DNA of 64,000 bases from Lobosporangium transversale. Taxonomy: Eukaryota. The position numbers and the translations under genes were made by a program. This document shows positions 883 to 32,217 of the stretch, one piece after another. The notes under the pieces are model-generated. The model had not been told where the DNA came from and made no database searches. It was given only the letters and a program-made list of their open reading frames with translations. The first letter of the stretch is position 1. Each line of letters starts with the position of its first letter. The stretch covers positions 248,001 to 312,000 of the forward strand of contig NW_019029004.1 of NCBI RefSeq assembly GCF_002105155.1, in the 5' to 3' direction.

Positions 883-1842
883 AAAAAGTAAACTAGTATA
901 ATGTTGACCATTCATATTCTCCCAAAAAAAAAGAGTTTATTAAAAAAATGTCCATGTATATACTTTTTTCACGATAAGATTTGGTAATTTTCTCACGCTC
1001 CTTTTTGTAGCCATTATGATTTTGGGTTTTAAAAAGCAGTAACAATCACTTCATGAACTTCATAGTAGTGCCATATCTAAGTTATAAATCCCTCTGGATG
1101 TCAACCTTTTTCTTCTTTTTTAAAAAAACTTCGAGGATGACTCTGTACAGATAGATAATCGATAAAAATGGATCGAAGAATTGAGATTCTACAACACTTT
1201 AATGTTACAAAGAATATCGACCTGCCTTGATACCATCTTCAATTTTATATAACTACCATTTCAACTACTGGTTAGGGGAAGCATCCTTTTTTCCTTTTAT
1301 GCGGGGCTTTCCTCCGGTCTACACCCTTATTAGTGTGCTGTTCCCACGGATACAATTAGTTTTCTATGCTCTAACTTTAAACAGACCATGATTCTAGGCG
1401 AAGCACCTAGAAGAATCAGAATGACTATTTAGTTTGAACATCTGGCATGACACTTTGTGGCATTACGCATAATACTTCACAGCATTTAATAATTCCTAAA
1501 GGCCCTAGACTTATCTGTCATGGTCTGACACAACTTTAAGATCGTCAAAGATGTACCATATAGGCCGCTGCGACTTATATGACAACTAAGGTGCTATTTA
1601 GGTGGTAACTCATGGTACCTTTGTATATATTATGCCATCTGATTTGAAATAGAGACACTCCTCTTTGACTTATTGGGCCTTAGTTCTCAAAGGCTAGTAA
1701 GCTTGTTTGTAAAAGATTAGAGTATTGCAAAGTTGTTACGTATTCAACAGTTCGCAGGATCGTTAATACCAAAGCGCGTATCCCACTTAGGAATATTGTG
1801 CTAGAAACAAAAATGTTAAAATTTTCAACCGCGATTTTCTTC

Positions 1843-1898
1843 CATAGAGTGTAGAAAATAAATCCCATGACCCCTGAGGGTCCTTGTTATCAAAAAAA
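1843..1898 (+). mobile_element. About 50-bp 5'-truncated LINE 3' end with short poly(A) and TSD
   Basis: Near-exact reverse complement of 5029-5076, followed by A7; flanked by tcaaccgcgattttcttc (1825-1842) and tcaaatgcgattttcttc (1899-1916). Confidence 0.85.
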
Positions 1899-2574
1899 TC
1901 AAATGCGATTTTCTTCAGAGACCATTATTAGCCGATCACACGCATCATGACACATATTACCCAAGATACAAGTTAGGGTTATGTGAATGCTTTGCTTTGC
2001 TGCATAGAGCACATGAAGCCTCAATATGGGACGCGTAAACAGTTGGGCGTAGAACCGCTTGAAATAGCACCCCAAAAGGCGAATAAATGCCTCTTAAATA
2101 TAATTTTATGGACCCGAACTTTTTAAATACTACGGATGACTGGAACCCTGAAGCTCCATCATGGTCCATGAAGGAAAATGACACTAAAGCACAAACGCAT
2201 ATAAGAACAGCCAAGAAAGGGATGGTAATTTGAATAAAGGATGAGCATGAGATAGAACGCTGGATCATACCCCATAGAATTACTATTTCCTATGTGGCCC
2301 ATTGTGTGGAAACCACGTCCACTGACCCAGATATAACGCTACTGGTTCAGCTTCAAGCTCCTATAACCACTTATAATGCTCAACCTCAATAATTCGTTAT
2401 TTTATCTCCTTTCTAGTTTCAACAATAAACGGTGTGTATCTTCACTGAGTTAAGCTGACGAAATTAAATCCCTATAAGCGTCCCCTACTCAAGGCACCCA
2501 TATCCACAACTCCTTTTTACCATCCTAAAATGAGTCTTCCTCATGCGAAGGAGTGCAAATAAAGGACCACTGAG

Positions 2575-4100
2575 CTTTTTATTGGTAATTGAGGTCCAGA
2601 AGTCGTGAGGCTTTATTAAAACTGATCTCTATAAATGGGTTTCCCTATAGCTACGAGATACTAATTTAGGGCTTTTTAATAGCTACTCTTGGCTGCATCG
2701 TTGTATATACGATACTCTTATTCACAGACCACGTCAGCGTGAGAACCTTTGATGCCTATGAAGCCTGTGATGAGTCCTTTTTATAACACTGCGTCTCTCT
2801 AGTCGAACAATGCTTTAAAACTGAAGGGCTACCTAGTTACATAACCTTTTTTTTGACAACGAGAGCCTGCGAGACCACATAGACTTTATTAATCTGTCAG
2901 CTCTGTAAATGAGTTGCCCATTTCTGGGGAGCATTACTGTGGAAAGAGTAGTCAGGACGTTTTTTTATTATTATTTTTTTTAATAACGAGATCATGTAGG
3001 ATTTATGTGGTCAGGATTTTTTTTTTTGATCCACGAGGCGGATATGGCCTAGGGCTGCTTCAACCTTTTTTTTTTATTTTTTTTTTTTATAACAATTTGA
3101 CTTTCTAAACGAACAACGCTATAAAACTGAAGACCTATCTAGTCCAAAATGTACTTAATGTTCCATCCTCCGGAGAGGATCGCTTTGCAGTCGCCATAAG
3201 CTTAGTCACATTCCCTTAGCTAGTCCTTCGGGTGCGGTGCAACTATTGCCACGGCTCATCACCGTGTTTAACGTCGAAAACATACTGTTGCAGGAAAAAA
3301 AATCGTCTTCATCTTTCCCATGGTTGTTAACCGTCCCTTTCTTAACAAGCTCTGCAATAGAATCTTGTCTGCGGCGGGTGGGTCTAACGTAGGTCCTGGA
3401 CAGCACCTGCCGCGATGCGCACCCATTGCCGTACCATAAAGACAAAAGCCTTCTGCTGCCATAAAGCCGTATCCGTTGCTCCACCCACCTCTTGGTCTAG
3501 TGTGTGGTGCACGTTTCTGCCTCGGTCTCACACCTCGGCCCTTCTCCTTGGCGATGATTTTCTTATAGCGTGGCTTCTAAATCAACTCCGTGGCCTGCTG
3601 CTCAAGGTAGTCAACGAACTTATGAATCACTTTACGAGCGATAGATCGCGCTGTGTGGAATAAAGGACCCCATTCGTTGATCAAACCAAACGGTGTACCT
3701 CGGTAGAGATCGCTGAAGCTTCATTTGAGATCAGGATTTTTTTTTTCTATAAATGGGTTGCCCCATTACTGGGGTCGCAAATAAAGCGGTATCAAATAAT
3801 CGGCCGAAGCCGCATCGTCATACTGCCACAGTACAACATCCTGTTCATAAATCACGTCAGTATTGAGAAGGATTCCTTGGTCCCTGGGGACCTGTGGCAC
3901 GGCTCTACCCTCAGGGCTGGCCCATCTCAGGTTTGTGCTCTTGTGGTCTTTGTTGTGTTTGGTAGTGTTTGGTAGTGGCTGCACGACACTAGCGATCTAT
4001 GCGCGACAGAGCCTCCTCCCTGGCCTAGGGCACTACAGGCCCATACGTGACCGTTGTTTTCGTCTTCAACCTCACAGACACAGCAAACTCGATCTGTAAA
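2575..4100 (-). mobile_element. Stack of degenerate LINE 3' fragments from related families
   Basis: Several poly(T)-headed segments. 2630-2780, 2905-2950 and 3745-3940 resemble the 3'UTR at 4165-4335. The ORF at 3268-3531 ends ADKILLQSLLRKGRLTTM, similar to the LINE C-terminus ADDRVRDSYLGKTKLDVM. Boundaries are approximate. Confidence 0.7.
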
Positions 4101-4107
4101 GAGGGGG

Positions 4108-4857
4108 GTTTTTTTTAATAACTGGGACTCACGAGGTTGCGAGGATTTATTAGAACTAGACTCAACAATTGGGTTGCCCTATTACTAGGGGCGCAAATGG
4201 GGCGTTTTCCAATGGTCGGTCTAAACCGCATCGTTGAACTGTCACTGTACAACATCCTATTCACAAACCGCATCAACATGAATGGCAACTCTTGGTCCCT
4301 ACGGAACCTGTGACGAGCCCCGCTCCCTACTTGGCCTGTTGTGCGCGAAAGTCATCTTCTAGCCGCAGTCCTCAATCATCAAAAAGCGACACCCTCCAGC
4401 CGCTCCATTACTGTCAGTTCTAATTGTTGCCGATAGCTCCCTGCTACTCTTTGGTCAGCTTCCGTCCTGATCGCTTTCACGTCAGCTGTTCGTCGTTTTC
4501 TCAAGGTAGGTCCTAAGATATCACCTCTGCTACGTCTGTGCTGCCCAACACAGGTGCATCCCCTGGCGCGTTTGCTCACAGAGGCGATGCCTTTAGTTCT
4601 TTCCCAGTCGACAGTGACTTTACAGCGTCTGTTCCAGATCTCAGTCCTCCCGATCCCCTCGATAACTTTGATAAATCTGCAAACCACATTTTTTGCAATA
4701 GATGTGGTTGCCTTGAAAGTACTTTTCCAATTCTTGACCATGTCTGTGGGCACCAAACCATGGTAGAGGTCTTGTACTGTTCTGATAGCTCCCTCGCCGT
4801 CGTAATACAATCCGGTCGCCTGTCGAATAGAAGCAGGCAACAGCTCTTGATCTGGAT

Positions 4858-4859
<2 letters not shown>
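4108..4859 (-). mobile_element. 5'-truncated LINE (second family): ORF2 C-terminus, 3'UTR and poly(A); host of later insertions
   Basis: ORF has VQDLYHGL...GRTEIWNRRCKVTVDWER...LTVMERL, paralogous to 5227-6306; T-run at about 4108-4116 with AATAAA on the minus strand. Confidence 0.88.
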
Positions 4860-4888
<29 letters not shown>

Positions 4889-4917
4889 GATAACAAGGAC
4901 CCTCAGGCTCATGGGAT
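4860..4917 (-). mobile_element. Micro-insertion: 29 bp of LINE 3' end plus poly(A), 20-bp TSD
   Basis: Perfect direct repeat acagctcttgatctggataa at 4840-4859 and 4918-4937 flanks a T-run plus gataacaaggaccctcaggctcatgggat. Confidence 0.92.
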
Positions 4918-4947
4918 ACAGCTCTTGATCTGGATAAAGGGTCTAGC

Positions 4948-5011
4948 TTTTTCTTTTTCTTTTTTTTTTTTTTTTTTTTTTTTTTTCGATCGATAAAACA
5001 AGGATCCTCAG
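4948..5011 (-). mobile_element. Second micro-insertion of a LINE 3' end, later split by the large LINE (remainder at 10116-10138)
   Basis: TSD ctggataaagggtctagc at 4930-4947 and ctggataaaggggtctagc at 10139-10157; T-rich tail at 4948-4986. Confidence 0.85.
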
Positions 5012-5226
5012 TTTTTTTTTTTTTTTTTGATAACAAGGACCCTCAGGGTCATGGGATTTATTTTCTACATTCTATGAACAAAATGCTCCAGAAACTATAG
5101 TCAATTAACAGTTATTACTGCACAAACGACAAGAGCCGCTGTATCCATGATTTCATAAACCCTGACCGCCGTGGTTGGTACTCAAAGTCCACCTTTCCGA
5201 CGTGGCCTGTTGCGCAACACGACAAA

Positions 5227-8200
5227 TTATCCGCTATCCATAGTCATCAAAAACTTCATTCCACCTAGCCGCTCCATCACGTCCAGTTTGGTTTTCCCAA
5301 GGTAACTGTCCCGGACTCGGTCATCCGCGATCTTGTAGATCTCTTTTACATTCAGCTTCTGTCTTTGTCTGAGGGAAGGGACAAGGAAATCATTGCTACT
5401 ACGTCTGTGCTCCCCAACACAGTTGCGTCCTCTAGCGCGTTTGCTCATAGCAGTGATTCCACGAGCCTTTTCCCATTCAACGGTGACTTTACACCGTTTG
5501 TTCCAGATTTCTGTACGACCGAATTCCTCTATGGCCTTGACGAAGCGCCCTGCCATATATGTAGCTATCCTTGTTGTTGTTTTGAAGCCAACTTTCCAAC
5601 TCTGAGCAATGGACTTGGGCGTAAGTCCATGGTAAATGTCCTGCACAGACCAATCTGGTGTGTGCTCTCTCTCTTCCTCATCATCACCGTTCCTATCACC
5701 ACGGCGTCGTACTTCTCGCACACCATCGATATGCATCTCCAGAGTTTTCCAAATGTAGTCCTCCTCTGCCGCAGTAAAAGTTGGCTCTTTTGTCCTTGGT
5801 GGGTCTACACCTCTCTCTCTGGCCCTTTGTGCTTGCTCCTGCACTGCTTTCAACTCTTTCTTCCATGTCCTCTCCCCTATCACATTCACATTTTGGATTA
5901 TCTCCTTCCACTTCTCGGCCTGAGTCTCCATCGTCCTTGGACATCTCCAGATGTGCGATGTGTCTTCATCCTCTGTCCCACACACTCTGCAGTTGCCGTC
6001 TTCATAAAGGTCTGGCCTCCAGTGTCTCATATATGACTGTGTAGGCAACATTCCATGGAGTTTCTTGATCCTGTGCGCTCGCTTTTGGCAGTCCGCTGGG
6101 CTGGTGAAGAGTCCTTTCGGTAGGTTGCTATCATGAACAATGTTCATAGTAGCTCGCCAATCAATTTTTGTCCAATCCTTAACATGCTCCTGCGTCCTGT
6201 TCTGAGCGATCCACGTGTGATGTGTACGAGTTGTTGACTGTAACTTAAGGATCTGCCTTAAGTCATCTTCCGCTGGTACACCGTTGAACTTTGCATGGCA
6301 GTACATGTCATTATGCTCCGTTATGTTGATATCCCATAGCTCGCCATAATGTCCATGTTTTGCTGCTTCGTCCGCTTCTTCGTTCCCTCTGTTGCCGGCA
6401 TGTCCTTTGACCCACTCGACCGTGACTTCCGATCCTTGTTGAATAAATGCGGTGATCTAATACGTTGTCGCAACGTGCTATCCACTCTGCCTCGGACCAA
6501 TGCTCGGAATTGAGTCACAACTGCGCTGTTATCAAGTCGGATTGTCATAGGTCTGTTTCGTGGGCTGATAAGTATTCCTGCCAACAAACCAGCTAGCTCT
6601 GCCTTTGTCGAGGATGCGTTGCCTGCTACTCTACCAGATAGCGCAGTGTAAAACTCACCCTCTAGTGTCTGGACTACCACACCAAATGCCATACTTACTC
6701 TTTCAGTGCCAATATCTTTGAGAGATCCATCCGTATAAATGACATTACCCGGCTGGGTATTGTACCGTTCCCTTTGGCGTTGGATTTTCTCCTCGGTATT
6801 GGCACTAATGATAACTCCATTTGTGTCCCTGGCTAGGCCTCTGTTGACTTCAGGGATCACTTTTAGGCACGGTGTCTCGTTGGAATCCAGGTCGACTTTT
6901 GCTCTCCTTAGCAGAGCTTGCTCGCTCAGACCCTCATATCTCCTTGTGTTCTGGGTCCGGCGTCTCCTCGCTTCTTCGCGGGCTCGCATGCGTTCACCAT
7001 GCCTTCGCTCTCGGTCCTGGTGGCGTTCTGCTCTTCTGACTATGGCATCTAACTTTGCTCTTTGTCGCCTAAGATTATGTTCTCTGGTTGCTCTGCGCGC
7101 CTCTTTCATAACAGCTTCTCGTCTCTTTTTCCGCTCCTTCTGTTGATCTAGAATCCACTTAATTCCAATTGGTGGCTCAACAGCTTGATTAGCCGGTGAT
7201 ACTGTCAAAGTTCTGTTCGCTGCCTCATCCTTTATGAATTGGTTGAGTGCACGAATCGCTTCTCGATCTTCGTCTTCTGTATCCCCGTCTACCGAGCTGA
7301 CATAACTACTGTCGCTGTTGCTGTCATCATCACTGACGTCTAAGAGTGCCAGTTTCCTCCTGTTCCATTCTCTTGCATGCCTACCCACATAATCGTTGTC
7401 GAAGCAAAAGTTTTGAAGTTGGTTGAACCAGAATGGCGAAACTTTAGGCCCTCCGTAACGGGTCCTGAATGCGTGCCATGAGATCATGTCCTCCTTATCA
7501 TCCGTAAGTATTTGATCCACAAAGTATACCATACGCTTGGTGAGCGCCTTCCATACGTGTGGTAATTCTCCGTTTAGCCATTTCCATGTCGAGAGAGCGT
7601 TGTGTGGGAGACCAAATTCGGCTGCGATCGATAGGTCGAAAGTAATGTTACGATTCCTCATTTCTTCACAAACATTCGATATAAAGTTGTGGCGATACTT
7701 TTTGACACGATGTGGCTCCAAAGTTGGCGAGACTTCCATCTTATTCCTGTGCTGCAGCATCAGTACTCGTGTCCGACATATCCGTCCCATTACATTGCTG
7801 TCATTAAGTCGAAGCGCCAGGGTAGATATTTGTTCTTCCGCTTGAGCGTTCGCCAAGTCTTTGATGGCATACAATCTATTGTGGTTCATAATGCTGTTTG
7901 GCGTAGTTGATGGCATACGTGCTTTCCGCTTACACAGTGACATATACTTACCAGTCATCTTCTGTAGGAACGTTGGTGGCAACATTTGGGCCGAAATTCT
8001 ATACAGCACCTTTGGGATGAGCACATTATTGACAATATACGTTGTCTGCCGATCTGTCAGGGCTTTGGACCGGAGAATGTTACAGGTCGTTTCTATTTCC
8101 TGCTCCACTATTTGCTGTGTTGCTGTTGGATTTCCTGTTGCTGTGACCCAAACACCAAGAATCCGTACCGATTCATTCTTTTCCACTGGTCGGATCTCTT

Positions 8201-10115
8201 CTGTAGGTGTCCCAAATTTCAGCGTGCTCCTCCTATCCTGCTTGCTGTTGATACAGATGACCTGCGTTTTCTTGGCGTTCACTTCCACCCCGTTAAGAAT
8301 GAAGAATGTCGTTGCAATGTCAAGTATCTCCTGCATATGTGCTTTGGAGTCCGATATCCATGTAGTATCATCCACGAAAGCAAGGCCAGCAACTGATGGT
8401 GTCCCTCTTGGTCCCTCTAGACTATATCCAGTGCTACTGTCTATAATTTCACACAGGAGTGCATCATATGCTATTCTCCATAAAAGCGGACATTCCACTC
8501 CACCTTGATCCAAACCGCACTCTGGATGATACTCGTCAGTTGGTCCGTATTTAGTAATCACCCTGTTCACTTTGGAAATGGCGATGTTTTCACATAGGCG
8601 TATGAACTGTTCAGGGACCTGGAGCCGTCTTAGTCCGCGAGAAAGCATCCCATCGGGGGCGCAGTTGACAGAGTCGAAACACCGTTTCATGTCTTGGAAC
8701 ACAATCCACTGTTCTTTCTTGAACTCTCTTGCGTCTTCCATTGCCGCTTGCAGGATATGGATTGGATCCTTAGTGGTAGTACCTTTAAGAACAGAGAAGT
8801 TTGGTCCTCGTAGAATATCGTGCCTGGCCATGATCGCGCTTAACCTATTTGTTATTACTGCAAACATTATTTTCCGTGCGTGCTCCAACAAAGCTATCGG
8901 CCTTACCTCTGCCATGTTTCCTGACCATTCTGGAGCTTTTGGTATGCAATAGAGGAGCCCCGTCTTCCAATCCTTGGGGACGTCTTCTTGCACGATAGTG
9001 GCACTTATGATTTGGAAGAGGATAAAGAGCCCCTGCGGTCCTTGGTGTTGGATCATTTCGTTCGTAATGCCTGACACACCAGCTGCCTTGTTTTTGGGTG
9101 CATCCAGGACCACAGCTGAAAACTCATTTCTGCTTGGTGGATCCATCAGACCGTCGTACCATTCACTCTTGATCCACCTCTGAGGGCTATATTGCTTCTG
9201 CCATCTCGAACCCGGCTCTAGCGGTTTTGACGGCCTAGGTCCGTGCCACTTGTCGAACCATGCCCGTACCTTCTCTTTAACTTGCTTTTTTTTTTTTTTT
9301 TTTTTTTTTTCCTGTTAACAAGAACCCACAGAGGTGAGGAATTTTATTTCATAATCTCGCTCTAAAGTAATGATATCGCCCTCAACTATGAAACAAGCGA
9401 AACTCTCAAAGTTCGCACGGGATGGCTGTGAAGAGCCAATTCGTATCCATGTTTTTCTCTACCAATGTACACCGTGATCGGTACTCGAAGTCCATCCTTC
9501 CGATGTGGCCTGTTGCGCCCGTGAAAAGCTGCGGAGGCTGGCGTGCCGACTCTAGCTAAGGACGACTTTTAATTTTTTCTATTCGATCAAATCCACTGGC
9601 ATGTGGACCCAAATCTTGCGGAATTGGTCTGAAATTTCTATTTTGGACTCCGTCAAACTTTGTGATCATCGCTGTCCTAGTCAAGTGGGTGGATGGGGGG
9701 ATGTGCTGCCAGATGTACCGCTGGTTCGGCTGGGGGGTGGAATATAAACCTAAGACATGTGGCCAGCCAGGCGACTTAGGGTAGTGCACCCACGATCTTA
9801 GCCTTAGCGGAGAACACTAGGCTGTCTCGGAGAGAAAGTATAAAAACTCAAGCAAATCCCTGACCTGGCACATGTTTGCTTCACTTTATGTGCCTTAACC
9901 AGGACTCGAACCCGGCCCCTGGGCTAGACAGGAGGGTGCCCTGACGAGTATACTACTCAGCCATTGGGGCCTTCTCTTTAACTTGCTGTGGCTCTAGACT
10001 ATTCACTGTGACACCGCCTTCGTCGTCCTGAATCCGGTCTATTGTCACTTTACCTCCACCACGTCCCAGCACTTTGTCTATCATTTTCCCTGTTGCCGAC
10101 TTCAACTCTCCACAG
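5227..10115 (-). pseudogene. Disrupted LINE ORF2 (RT-RNase H-ZnF)
   Basis: The frame continues across the SINE once it is removed (..SLEPQQVKEK|VRAWFDKWHG..GLMDPP). A frameshift near 6445 inside RNase H separates ORFs 6321-9146 and 5227-6306. No endonuclease domain remains. Confidence 0.9.
9286..9970 (-). mobile_element. Full-length tRNA-derived SINE (about 685 bp) with LINE-like 3' tail
   Basis: TSD cttctctttaacttgc at 9270-9285 and 9971-9986; poly(T) at 9286-9310. Head 9970-9891 has A box TGGCTGAGTAG, B box GGTTCGAGTCC and an intact T arm. 9431-9518 aligns with LINE 3'UTR 5131-5215. Confidence 0.92.
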
Positions 10116-10258
10116 CGATAAAACAAGGATCCTCAGGGCTGGATAAAGGGGTCTAGCTTGCATGTATTTTAAAAAAATGCAAATATGGGTCGTGCTCATA
10201 TAGAATGTATTAATATTGATATAATAATATGCTAAAAGTACACCATTCAACAAACCAA

Positions 10259-10329
10259 GAAAGTGTAGTATATGGGTATCATTCCGGCCTTCCAAGCCTG
10301 AGAACCGGGTTCGAGTCCCGGCACTTTCA
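10259..10329 (+). tRNA. tRNA-Gly (TCC)
   Basis: Acceptor stem GAAAGTG/CACTTTC, anticodon loop CT-TCC-AA, T arm CCGGG-TTCGAGT-CCCGG, T5 terminator immediately downstream; one mismatch in the anticodon stem. Confidence 0.9.
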
Positions 10330-11334
10330 TTTTAATAAGCTTCGGTCAAAATTTTTTGGATTAATGACAAGTTTTGATTGGAAACAGAGGGATCGCAAAT
10401 AGAAGCGATATCCAATAATAATAATCGGTCACAACTCCTTTGGCCTGTCGTACGCGAAGGACATCCTTTTGCTGAATTCCCCACCCCTCAAAAATTTATA
10501 GCTTTCCAAACGCTCCATAACCGCCTATTCCATCTGCTGTCGGTAGCTTGTCGCCACCTGCTGGACAGGACCAGTTCTTATCGCCATCATTTCTTTTTAA
10601 CTTTTTTTTTTTTTTTTTTTTTCTGAATGGTACGCGTATTTCTTGGGAGATGTTTGGCAAGGAACAGATACATGTATATATTTTATGTAAACGGATATTT
10701 TTCTCCACAAGCACGCACAGCATGAACGATGACGAGGTTGTCATTTTAGTGATACAACTGGATTCCCGGCGGCTGAATAGCCGCAATCAAAAAATCCGAG
10801 ATGCATTTTCCGAACTCGGCGGTAAATTTGAGGCACTAAAAAAAAAAAAATTTAGTGAGCAGGTTATAAAAAAAGCAAGGACAGAAACTGAGTTCACCCC
10901 CGCAAATCTCTGTCCAGTCATGTTCGAAGGGTTTGTTTACAACTCTACAAAGTGTATTTTCAGATCATCATGTGCTTATGATGAAGCAAAAGACTTCCCG
11001 CTTGGATCTGGTTGGGTTCACTTTATTGTCTCTTGATGTATAAAATCCAGAGTGACATCTAGACATCATGTCGAACATAATGGCATTCTTGACTTTTTAA
11101 TTTTCTGCAGTACTTCAATCCATACTCCTCTCTTTAAAAAAGTAGAAAAAATAAAAAATAAATAAAATTAAAGAAGAAGCCGATAAAAAAAGGCAAAAGA
11201 GATGCCTTTAGGAGACGAAAATGCTTCAATGCACAGACAGAGACGATGGCATCCAGACAGGCACAAGAATGTTAACGTATATTTATAATCTTTATTCTGG
11301 AATTCTAATTGATGGATACATATGATGTGACGAC

Positions 11335-30429: not shown

Positions 30430-30797
30430 TCATAATATCAGAAGTGAAAGAAACGGGGGAGATAGGATAGGAAGGAGCGATCTCGGCTACACTGGCATCT
30501 CTCCCAGGCACGAAATTCTAGGACAACTTAGAAATGTATATACTTGCTCACATCCCTTTGGGATCTCTCATTAAAAGTTAGATTGTTTTTCAAGCTAATG
30601 CTTTATGTTTATTATTATTATTATTTTTTTTCATTGCCATACATAAAAAGCTGGATCCATCGGCTGTCAAAAAGTAGTTTTGTTTTTTCTTTTCTGATAA
30701 TAACGAATATCCTCGAGATTGTGGGGACTATTAGTACTACTCTATTGATTGTTGTTCAATTGCAAGTAAAGTGGTTTCTATATACATATAATAATTA

Positions 30798-31110
30798 GTC
30801 TTGGCTACATCATCCACAGTGCATCCCTACTCATAACCCACGTCAACATGCGTGATCCCTACGGAGGCTGTGGCGAGAGATCCTGCTTCTTATTCGGCCT
30901 GTTGCGCGCGAAAGTCATCTTCTAACCGCAGTCCTTAACCATAGAAAAAAAATAAAATAAAATAAAAAAAAAAAAAAAAAAAAAAAAGACATTCTCCAAG
31001 TCGTTCCTTTCCAATTACTGTGCGCTAACTCTCTGTTTTACTCTTTGGCAAGCTACCATCCTAATCGATTTCACCTCAACTGCTCGTCATTTACCTCAGG
31101 GGGCAGATCC
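30798..31110 (-). mobile_element. Degenerate LINE 3' remnant, same family as 4108-4859
   Basis: ggcctgttgcgcgcgaaagtcatcttctaaccgcagtcct is nearly identical to 4333-4372; similarity continues to about 31110 against 4388-4515. Confidence 0.85.
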
Positions 31111-31359
31111 TCTCCACTCCTGACACTTTTTTTTTTTTTTTTTTTTTTATTCACAGAGACGTGCATATCTCTAGGGTGCACACACCACACCCATGGGTAT
31201 TTATTCATTTTCTAGTAGAGGGCCTTATACCAGGTAACGACGTATCTATCTATAAGATGGCAAAGGTTCGTTCTAAAAACTTCATATATATCAAAGATTT
31301 ATCGCGTCTATGTGTGGCGCGTTATTGCCACTAATTTCTATTACTAATCTTTACTTTAA

Positions 31360-31816
31360 TTTTTTTCTAGCTAGGCCATCATAATATTGTATACTGTGAA
31401 ATATGCAACAGAGCGCGATGAGTATCGCAGCTCCCACGGCGCTGCCACTTCCAACAGTAATAATTCCAGACTCCTCCCTACTCTAGACTCACCTCCGCTT
31501 ATTAATATAAAGCTAGAATCATGTAGTCTGTAGGATACACGTTACTGCTTGTAGATGAAATAGAGGCTCCGTGCAAATAACTTCATCCTTTTTTTCTAGC
31601 TAGGCCATCATAAAATTGCAACAGAGCGTGATGAGTATCGCAGCTCCCAGGGCGCTGCAACTTCCAACAGTAATAATTCCAGACTCCCCCCTTCACTCTA
31701 GACTCATCTTCGCATATTTCCTTCGAAATAAAAAGCTAGAATCATGTAATCTGAAGATACACGTCGCCGCTTGTAGATGAAGGTGAAATAAGGACCCCGT
31801 GCAAATAACTTCATCC
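31360..31816. repeat. Two diverged tandem copies of a 228-bp unit (31360-31588, 31589-31816)
   Basis: Both begin ttttttctagctaggccatcataa and end ccgtgcaaataacttcatcc, with colinear interiors. Confidence 0.92.
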
Positions 31817-31859
31817 AAAAAAAAAAGTAACGAGAACACACCCGAAATTTAAAAACATA

Positions 31860-31942
31860 TCCGAAAACCCGGATTTGAACCAGGGACCTAGAGATGACAG
31901 ACAAACTACAGTCTCCCGCTCTACCAACTGAGCTATTTTCGG
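31860..31942 (-). tRNA. tRNA-Tyr (GTA) with 10-nt intron
   Basis: CCGAAAA/TTTTCGG acceptor, GCTC-AGTTGGTA-GAGC D arm, GGAGA-CT-GTA-G-[tttgtctgtc]-A-TCTCT, CCTGG-TTCAAAT-CCGGG. Confidence 0.96.
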
Positions 31943-32059
31943 AAGTCTTGATATTGTGATCACAGACAAATATAATATTTACAACTGTGAAGCCCTTAAC
32001 CGCTTACTTGCGTGCTTCAAGTAATTTATACTGTTTGAATCTGAAGATCACGTGTAGTT

Positions 32060-32142
32060 CCGAAAATAGCTCAGTTGGTAGAGCGGGAGACTGTAGTTTG
32101 TCTGTCATCTCTAGGTCCCTGGTTCAAATCCGGGTTTTCGGA
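32060..32142 (+). tRNA. tRNA-Tyr (GTA) with 10-nt intron
   Basis: Identical to the minus-strand copy including the intron; T-rich terminator follows. Confidence 0.96.
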
Positions 32143-32217
32143 TAATCTTTTCTTCTTTTGGACGAGTGGAGTTATTTGCATGGAAGCTCCTTATTAATTT
32201 TTTTTTTTGGATTAATC

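Follow-up and report, generated by a model that had tools for sequence, protein, structure and literature searches.

Introduction

What causes broken retrotransposon copies to lie one behind another, all in the same orientation, ahead of a single transfer RNA (tRNA) gene? This question is raised by a 64,000-nucleotide stretch of DNA from Lobosporangium transversale (contig NW_019029004.1, positions 248,001 to 312,000), referred to as the window, in which about a dozen broken copies of a long interspersed nuclear element (LINE) and one short interspersed nuclear element (SINE) are stacked ahead of a tRNA-Gly gene and point away from it. The analysis presented here indicates that the stack is probably anchored to the tRNA gene, as a first-pass annotation of the window had proposed. 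In the reading favoured here, a fungal LINE family and its partner SINE would aim about 100–155 bp upstream of tRNA genes, pointing away from them.

Insertions Upstream of the tRNA-Gly Gene

The proposed anchor, a tRNA-Gly(TCC) gene on the plus strand (10259–10329), was called independently by ARAGORN and by Rfam (RF00005, 51 bits, E 5e-8), both placing its start where it had been placed before. These programs found three tRNA genes in the window, the tRNA-Gly gene and a tRNA-Tyr pair. Between 2576 and 9310, 12 pieces headed by a T run were counted by eye, and every profile-matching piece of this stack was on the minus strand. In controls with the reversed window the long profiles gave no match and the short profiles gave only matches with E above 0.5.

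Element B (5012–10115, minus strand; Pfam and tblastn) is a 5′-truncated LINE of about 4.4 kb, not counting the SINE nested in it. Its target-site duplication (TSD) is identical at 21 of 21 positions between the left (4991–5011) and right (10116–10136) copies, and its target was the body of another copy, stub A. The latter is composed of a poly(A) tail and about 27 nt, similar at 14 of 15 positions to the 3′ end of B; the tail part (4948–4990, minus strand) has a poly(A) of 39 nt with interruptions, and the other 23 nt (10116–10138, minus strand), recognized by sequence, were split off by B. The TSD of A (4930–4949 and 10139–10159) carries one extra G in its right copy, and the cores 4930–4947 and 10139–10157 differ by this one G within a G run. 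Stub D (4860–4917, minus strand) consists of a 29-nt poly(A) and 29 nt of the B-family 3′ end, identical to B at 28 of 29 positions, between TSD copies that match at 20 of 20 positions (4840–4859 and 4918–4937). All three TSD pairs reported earlier were thus recovered, two of them perfect and the third with the minor difference described for A.

The tRNA-proximal TSD edge was located 99–101 bp from the tRNA +1 position for A and 122 bp for B, and the corresponding 5′ junctions at 120 and 143 bp. For D the edge would be at 112 bp and the junction at 132 bp, if it had been inserted first; the edges agree with the earlier estimate of about 101–122 bp. Stub A preceded B, which was inserted into A, and the SINE was inserted into B. 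The place of D in this order affects its distance, its TSD edge being at 197 bp if it was inserted between A and B and at 5.3 kb if it came last. Since D is identical to the young B at 28 of 29 positions while the TSD of A has an indel, D probably followed A, and its insertion before A is the less likely order; the distance of about 112 bp claimed for D is right for that doubtful order.

Farther from the tRNA gene, element E (4109–4785, minus strand) represents an older subfamily and retains the end of open reading frame (ORF) 2, the 3′ untranslated region (UTR) and an 8-nt tail. It is 69% like B and was detected by nhmmer (E 7e-93) with a profile built from metagenome loci alone; by coordinate arithmetic, no more than about 186 bp separated its 5′ end from the tRNA gene before A, B and D came. 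Behind it lies an older decayed stack (2576–4108, minus strand), made up of no fewer than seven 3′ pieces with tails, which belong to two or more subfamilies; their pure T runs measure 5–12 nt, and ORF2 matches are found at 3271–3720 and 3930–4178. E and these pieces, which reach down to 2576, bear out the description of more decayed fragments farther from the tRNA gene. Pure tails measured 17–29 nt close to the tRNA gene and 5–12 nt farther out, which fits younger copies being nearest to it and newer copies having pushed older ones outward, as had been suggested.

Poly(A) tails, TSDs of variable length and 5′ truncations are the marks of target-primed reverse transcription in APE-type LINEs. 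Because all three are present here, with TSDs of 12, 17–18, 20, 20–21 and 21 bp, insertion by target-primed reverse transcription is indicated.

The Nested SINE

The SINE within B (9286–9969, minus strand, 684 bp) was absent from the earlier list of insertions. It has its own TSD of 17–18 bp (9269–9286 and 9970–9987) and is organized as a tRNA-like head, a conserved middle, a LINE-derived 3′ tail, 77% like the 3′ UTR of B over 88 nt (E 7e-11), and a 25-nt poly(A). The head contains A-box-like and B-box-like motifs, seen by eye in the sequence; in Rfam it gave no match to RF00005 and a weak match to the tRNA-like mascRNA only (E 1.9). A homologue is located directly upstream of a full-length LINE in the metagenome locus L001 (E 1.4e-7). 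With A/B-box-like motifs, a LINE-like tail, poly(A), a TSD and repeated occurrence, the element has the features of a tRNA-derived SINE. The insertion point is in the tRNA-proximal 130 bp of the 4.4-kb element B, and at insertion the TSD edge was 271 bp and the 5′ end 289 bp from tRNA-Gly.

The middle blocks of this SINE family are conserved between window positions 9311–9969 and L001:15–911 and had no match in Rfam. In the same locus, 18 nt of the element's 3′ end recur in inverted orientation at L001:912–930, after the SINE tail and before the LINE 5′ end, either as a template switch or as an assembly artefact.

Relatives at Other tRNA Genes

A single scan of metagenome contigs yielded 18 loci of the family, seven beginning inside the element and 11 reaching 5′ of ORF1. 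Three of the 11 (L004, L007 and L013) have readable non-element DNA upstream and are informative. In L004 a tRNA-Cys gene stands head-to-head with the element, 154 bp before its conserved 5′ motif, and in L007 a tRNA-Glu gene is in the same arrangement at 147 bp; both tRNA genes are at the start of their contigs. The geometry seen in the window is thus found in two of the three informative loci, or in two of the 11 if these are counted strictly. Assuming genomes of 40–50 Mb with 200–400 tRNA genes, the chance of at least two such loci is 1e-6 to 5e-4. It is from the distance and orientation at three tRNA isotypes that we infer anchoring to the tRNA gene.

Upstream of the LINE 5′ motif, and in the same orientation, L001 has the homologous SINE at 22 bp and L012 a poly(A) run at 47 bp, and in L007 an older copy lies behind the element, as position-anchored stacking predicts. 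A reverse transcriptase (RT) tree of 111 rows, from which hits covering fewer than 340 profile positions were excluded, was calculated with a quick IQ-TREE run supported by the Shimodaira–Hasegawa-like approximate likelihood-ratio test (SH-aLRT) only; its one named row was a protein from Entomortierella. Element B, L001, L003, L004, L007 and the Entomortierella protein fell into one clade of 10 rows (SH-aLRT 99), within which L004 and L007 are on separate branches.

Intron-tolerant, low-threshold ARAGORN calls were rejected as noise, with the exception of the L007 gene, which was confirmed separately. Locus L019 was a chance pattern match inside a bacterial gene and was dropped. No relatives were found in viral contigs or genome contigs.

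Coding Capacity of Element B and Its Family

Element B encodes an RT (Pfam RVT_1, E 5e-22) and an RNase H (RNase_H, E 2e-6), and contains the end of the tower region, RT, RNase H, a CCHC finger, the 3′ UTR and a 17-nt poly(A). In tblastn it corresponds to residues 476–1887 of the full-length relative P0001 (1887 aa) at 57–69%. It is devoid of ORF1 and of the endonuclease, the latter owing to the 5′ truncation, and its frame is broken near 6450, within RNase H. Judged from these defects and from its being split by the SINE, B is a dead copy.

Contigs of four sequencing runs, which show presence and not absence, were compared with window positions 900–11100; the window itself may derive from one of these runs. 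Three runs gave longer copies beyond the 5′ break of B and raised depth over B; as loose contig ends, the longer copies run past 10117 and carry extra letters at 6450. The depth, which marks repeats and is not a copy number, was about 80 over B versus 10–12 on the flanks in X2 and 69–104 versus 10–11 in X4, and 206–339 over the SINE in X2. Near-identical copies of B are therefore present elsewhere. Among the 15 of 38 joints listed for these contigs, none skipped B, the SINE or the stack, and no empty site was seen.

The ORF2 products of full-length relatives (1.9–2.4 kaa) contain an APE endonuclease (Exo_endo_phos), RVT_1, RNase H and a CCHC motif, and their ORF1 encodes RRM domains and a CCHC zinc knuckle. 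The best PDB match was human L1 ORF2p (E 2e-19), above R2. APE endonuclease and RT in ORF2, an RNA-binding ORF1 protein (RRM and CCHC) in relatives, poly(A) tails, TSDs of variable length and 5′ truncation are together those of an APE-type, L1-like family. L001 and L007 have both ORFs open. The nearest named relatives belong to Entomortierella parvispora (67% across the RT region) and Haplosporangium gracile, which makes a Mortierellaceae fungus the likely host. A structure model of ORF1p (predicted local distance difference test score, pLDDT, 76.5) matched tandem-RRM proteins; RRM-type folds were the only ones seen in it, and no targeting domain. A match to TBP in the ORF1p search covered low-complexity stretches and was disregarded. 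The 3′-end hairpins of B and of the SINE were no more stable than those of shuffled sequences (z −0.5 and 0.3).

ORF2 of this family carries a long insert of charged, variable sequence between RT and RNase H (window positions 6900–7400), a candidate targeting or tethering region. In the distant relative P0008, a weak OTU-like protease match was found between the same two domains (Pfam E 0.0015, below the cut-off).

Exceptions and Alternative Explanations

A number of observations weigh against tRNA-anchored targeting. Stub F (1843–1904), a young B-family 3′ end matching B at 47 of 49 aligned positions and flanked by a 12-bp TSD (1831–1842 and 1905–1916), is on the plus strand, opposite to the stack; at insertion it lay no closer than about 3 kb to the tRNA gene, and Rfam found no tRNA near it. 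An old family piece (10439–10593, minus strand; nhmmer E 8.7e-15) lies 110 bp downstream of tRNA-Gly. The SINE junction at 289 bp and probably D, at 197 bp or 5.3 kb, are outside the narrow band. Among the metagenome loci, L013, an old broken copy with stops, has no tRNA gene in 4.6 kb upstream, and eight of the 11 loci reaching 5′ of ORF1 are uninformative: L001 and L012 have another tailed sequence directly upstream, and in the remaining six the contig stops less than about 300 bp from ORF1 or the 5′ end is unmapped. Rfam detected no degenerate tRNA upstream in L001, L003, L008, L009, L011, L012 or L013, and in the sister subclade L008–L012 the tRNA link was not seen. No TSD was detected in any of six full-length loci, and the ends of L001 and L005 look like assembly joins, which leaves their 3′ flanks as weak evidence. 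For these reasons the contigs may be mosaics, a weakness that bears more on the 3′ flanks than on the unique 5′ sequence joining element and tRNA gene. Part of the 147–154 bp may be element 5′ UTR, and surviving copies mix targeting with selection.

The first-pass annotation had all insertions in one orientation with their 5′ ends facing the tRNA gene. This holds throughout the profile-matching pieces of the stack; the plus-strand stub F, the downstream piece and a piece near the tRNA-Tyr pair fall outside the pattern. Landing upstream of tRNA genes at a given position and orientation is supported at tRNA-Gly, -Cys and -Glu, and its strictness is not, in view of 1843–1904, 10439–10593, L013 and the SINE at 289 bp. 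Targeting is leaky, not strict.

After the tRNA-Gly terminator, the interval 10330–10438 aligns loosely with the family 3′ end, not significantly by nhmmer, as if an old copy had been primed at the terminator T run; it may be the decayed tail of 10439–10593 reaching the terminator.

One rival explanation is the absence of active targeting, a loose bias to open intergenic chromatin being followed by survival of the little-harmful copies next to tRNA genes. Stub F, the downstream piece and L013 speak for this explanation, as do the restriction of the narrow distance to three tRNA loci and the fact that all data are from survivors. Selection alone, however, predicts neither a band of 120–155 bp at three different tRNA genes nor a single orientation, and no copy was detected in the roughly 24 kb of other non-ORF DNA that the window contains. 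The absence of targeting is on this evidence improbable. An old 3′ piece with a decayed tail (about 30700–31108, minus strand; nhmmer E 5e-12 with the loci-only profile) is also of relevance. Its 5′ end faces the tRNA-Tyr pair, 751 bp from the 3′ end of the nearer gene and 950 bp from the +1 position of the plus-strand gene. It and 10439–10593 are the sole other old pieces in 64 kb, 751 and 110 bp from tRNA genes, and since, with the stack left out, 11% of the window's 26,685 non-ORF bases are within 900 bp of a tRNA gene, the probability of both being there is about 0.01. A three-piece probability of 0.0013 collapses the stack, so flatters stub F, and was set aside.

Alternatively, the elements could prefer earlier copies or poly(A)/T tracts, with the tRNA gene as a bystander. 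B does lie in the tail of A, the TSD of D ends about 10 bp from that tail and B in turn houses the SINE; in X1 contigs a further two SINE 5′ ends are joined to LINE ORF2 (joints 9968–4601 and 9968–6565), a T run borders the piece downstream of tRNA-Gly, and Zorro3 of Candida, bordered by poly(A), offers a precedent. The nick sites, on the other hand, are not A/T tracts, and, in a window with well over 100 A or T runs of at least 9 nt, tails of the family are confined to the stack, stub F and the vicinity of tRNA-Tyr. L004 and L007 pass from their 5′ ends via unrelated flanks into different tRNA genes, and the tRNA-facing position of B and of the SINE is left unexplained. Such self-attraction thus seems a poor candidate for the whole pattern.

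Sequence-specific insertion of the Tx1 type (e.g., Dewa) at a motif in tRNA flanks, for which the 8-nt overlap of the targets of D and A could be cited, is very improbable and largely refuted, since five nick-aligned 25-mers gave a mean agreement of 6.1/25 versus 6.4 for random sets (69% of 5000 random sets as high), in accordance with the differing TSD sequences noted before, and the tRNA-Gly, -Cys and -Glu flanks had no BLAST match among them. The common target motif that the first-pass annotation had named as a refutation was thus not seen.

Proposed Mechanism

On the favoured explanation, anchoring to the tRNA gene, the element ribonucleoprotein would be tethered by the RNA polymerase III (Pol III) machinery (TFIIIB/TFIIIC or Pol III itself) and would nick the DNA with little sequence preference, beyond the TFIIIB footprint and near the first upstream nucleosome. 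Each new copy would land nearest to the tRNA gene and push older ones outward. The SINE would likely borrow ORF2p through its LINE-like tail and so inherit the target. A cut position at 100–155 bp lies beyond where TFIIIB sits, which points to either a longer tether or, as with Ty1, cleavage at the first nucleosome upstream. Direct tethering to the Pol III machinery seems slightly favoured, and recognition of a tRNA-specific chromatin feature without direct contact is unlikely.

Comparison with Known Systems

In behaviour the family resembles TRE5-A/B/C of Dictyostelium discoideum, non-LTR (long terminal repeat) elements found upstream of tRNA genes of many isotypes, in the opposite orientation, without a motif and in tandems at one tRNA gene (PMC5911963, PMC5391098). 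TRE5-A ORF1p contacts TBP, Brf1 and Bdp1, and the element lands 40–54 bp away (PMC5911963). In the present family the junctions are at 120–155 bp (TSD edges at 99–122 bp), about three times that distance, so that a TRE5-style mechanism cannot simply be carried over. In addition, ORF2 here has an RNase H, unlike TRE5 (APE-RT-ZF, no RNase H), copies nest, a tRNA-headed SINE joins them and the host is a fungus; TREs are reported to form tandems without nesting (PMC5391098). By distance and domains the family is not a member of TRE5. The best match in domain layout is to NLTR-A of D. purpureum and NLTR-B of P. pallidum, the latter alike in behaviour too, APE-RT-RNase H elements upstream of tRNA genes; compared by layout and distance, they differ in lying 2–6 bp and 39–64 bp upstream, respectively, versus 120–155 bp here (PMC5006619). 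No database match to the family carried a dictyostelid name.

Ty1 of Saccharomyces cerevisiae is similar in using a window upstream of Pol III genes and nucleosomal DNA (PMC5911963), and the junctions at 120–155 and 289 bp are about one nucleosome apart, in one case only. It differs in being an LTR element with an integrase; the family described here inserts in a single orientation and bears the hallmarks of target-primed reverse transcription. Among fungal L1-like LINEs with a biased location and a zinc-knuckle ORF1, Grem-LINE1 of Mucor circinelloides is pericentromeric, with listed domains that do not include RNase H (10.1101/706580), and Zorro3 of Candida albicans has poly(A) on its borders and no TSD (PMC3956500); the available text on either states no tRNA-gene link (10.1101/706580, PMC3956500). 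Tx1-type elements (Dewa, Keno, Mutsu) are set apart by a conserved target sequence, and other tRNA-linked non-LTR elements (Dewa, NeSL-1_TV, LIN15/25) are sequence-specific (PMC3706591, PMC4640811). RNase H has been reported for Proto1 and plant L1 (PMC4640811).

The sites named for fungal LINEs are poly(A), telomeric or pericentromeric (PMC3956500, PMC7175516, 10.1101/706580, PMC11952901). In the available parts of reviews, tRNA-upstream non-LTR elements are from dictyostelid amoebae only and fungal cases are all LTR elements. The suggestion that a fungal LINE upstream of tRNA genes had not been described is supported, none being found in a full-text literature search outside most subscription papers and Repbase. 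Whether the family is an RNase H-bearing Mortierellaceae LINE with independently evolved Pol III-guided targeting and a new, longer register (about −100 to −155, and another one nucleosome on), carrying a tRNA-headed SINE to the same sites, is in our estimation evenly balanced.

Other Features of the Window

The window is fungal, gene-rich and rich in poly(A)/(T) runs. The stack is flanked by an aminotransferase gene on one side and an aconitase gene on the other. The two tRNA-Tyr(GTA) genes (31859–32143, both strands; ARAGORN and Rfam) are identical and intron-bearing, forming a divergent inverted repeat with a 115-bp spacer, and adjoin a tandem duplication of about 230 bp (31360–31816, 79% identical). 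A 22-nt T run followed by a stretch folding into two minus-strand hairpins (31127–31215, z −2.0) may be the tail of another non-LTR family. T-run-headed stretches from 10623 and from 31149 matched nothing and were not counted as elements.

Conclusions

If the proposed targeting is true, Pol III targeting would have arisen independently once more, this time in a culturable group of fungi, and the longer distance points to a different tether or to a choice at the level of the nucleosome. Co-targeting of the SINE, if true, would mean that the LINE proteins hold the address. Elements of this kind are candidate tools for safe-harbour insertion. With intact relatives at hand (P0001, L001 and L007), how a target-primed element reads a protein landmark becomes testable outside Dictyostelium.

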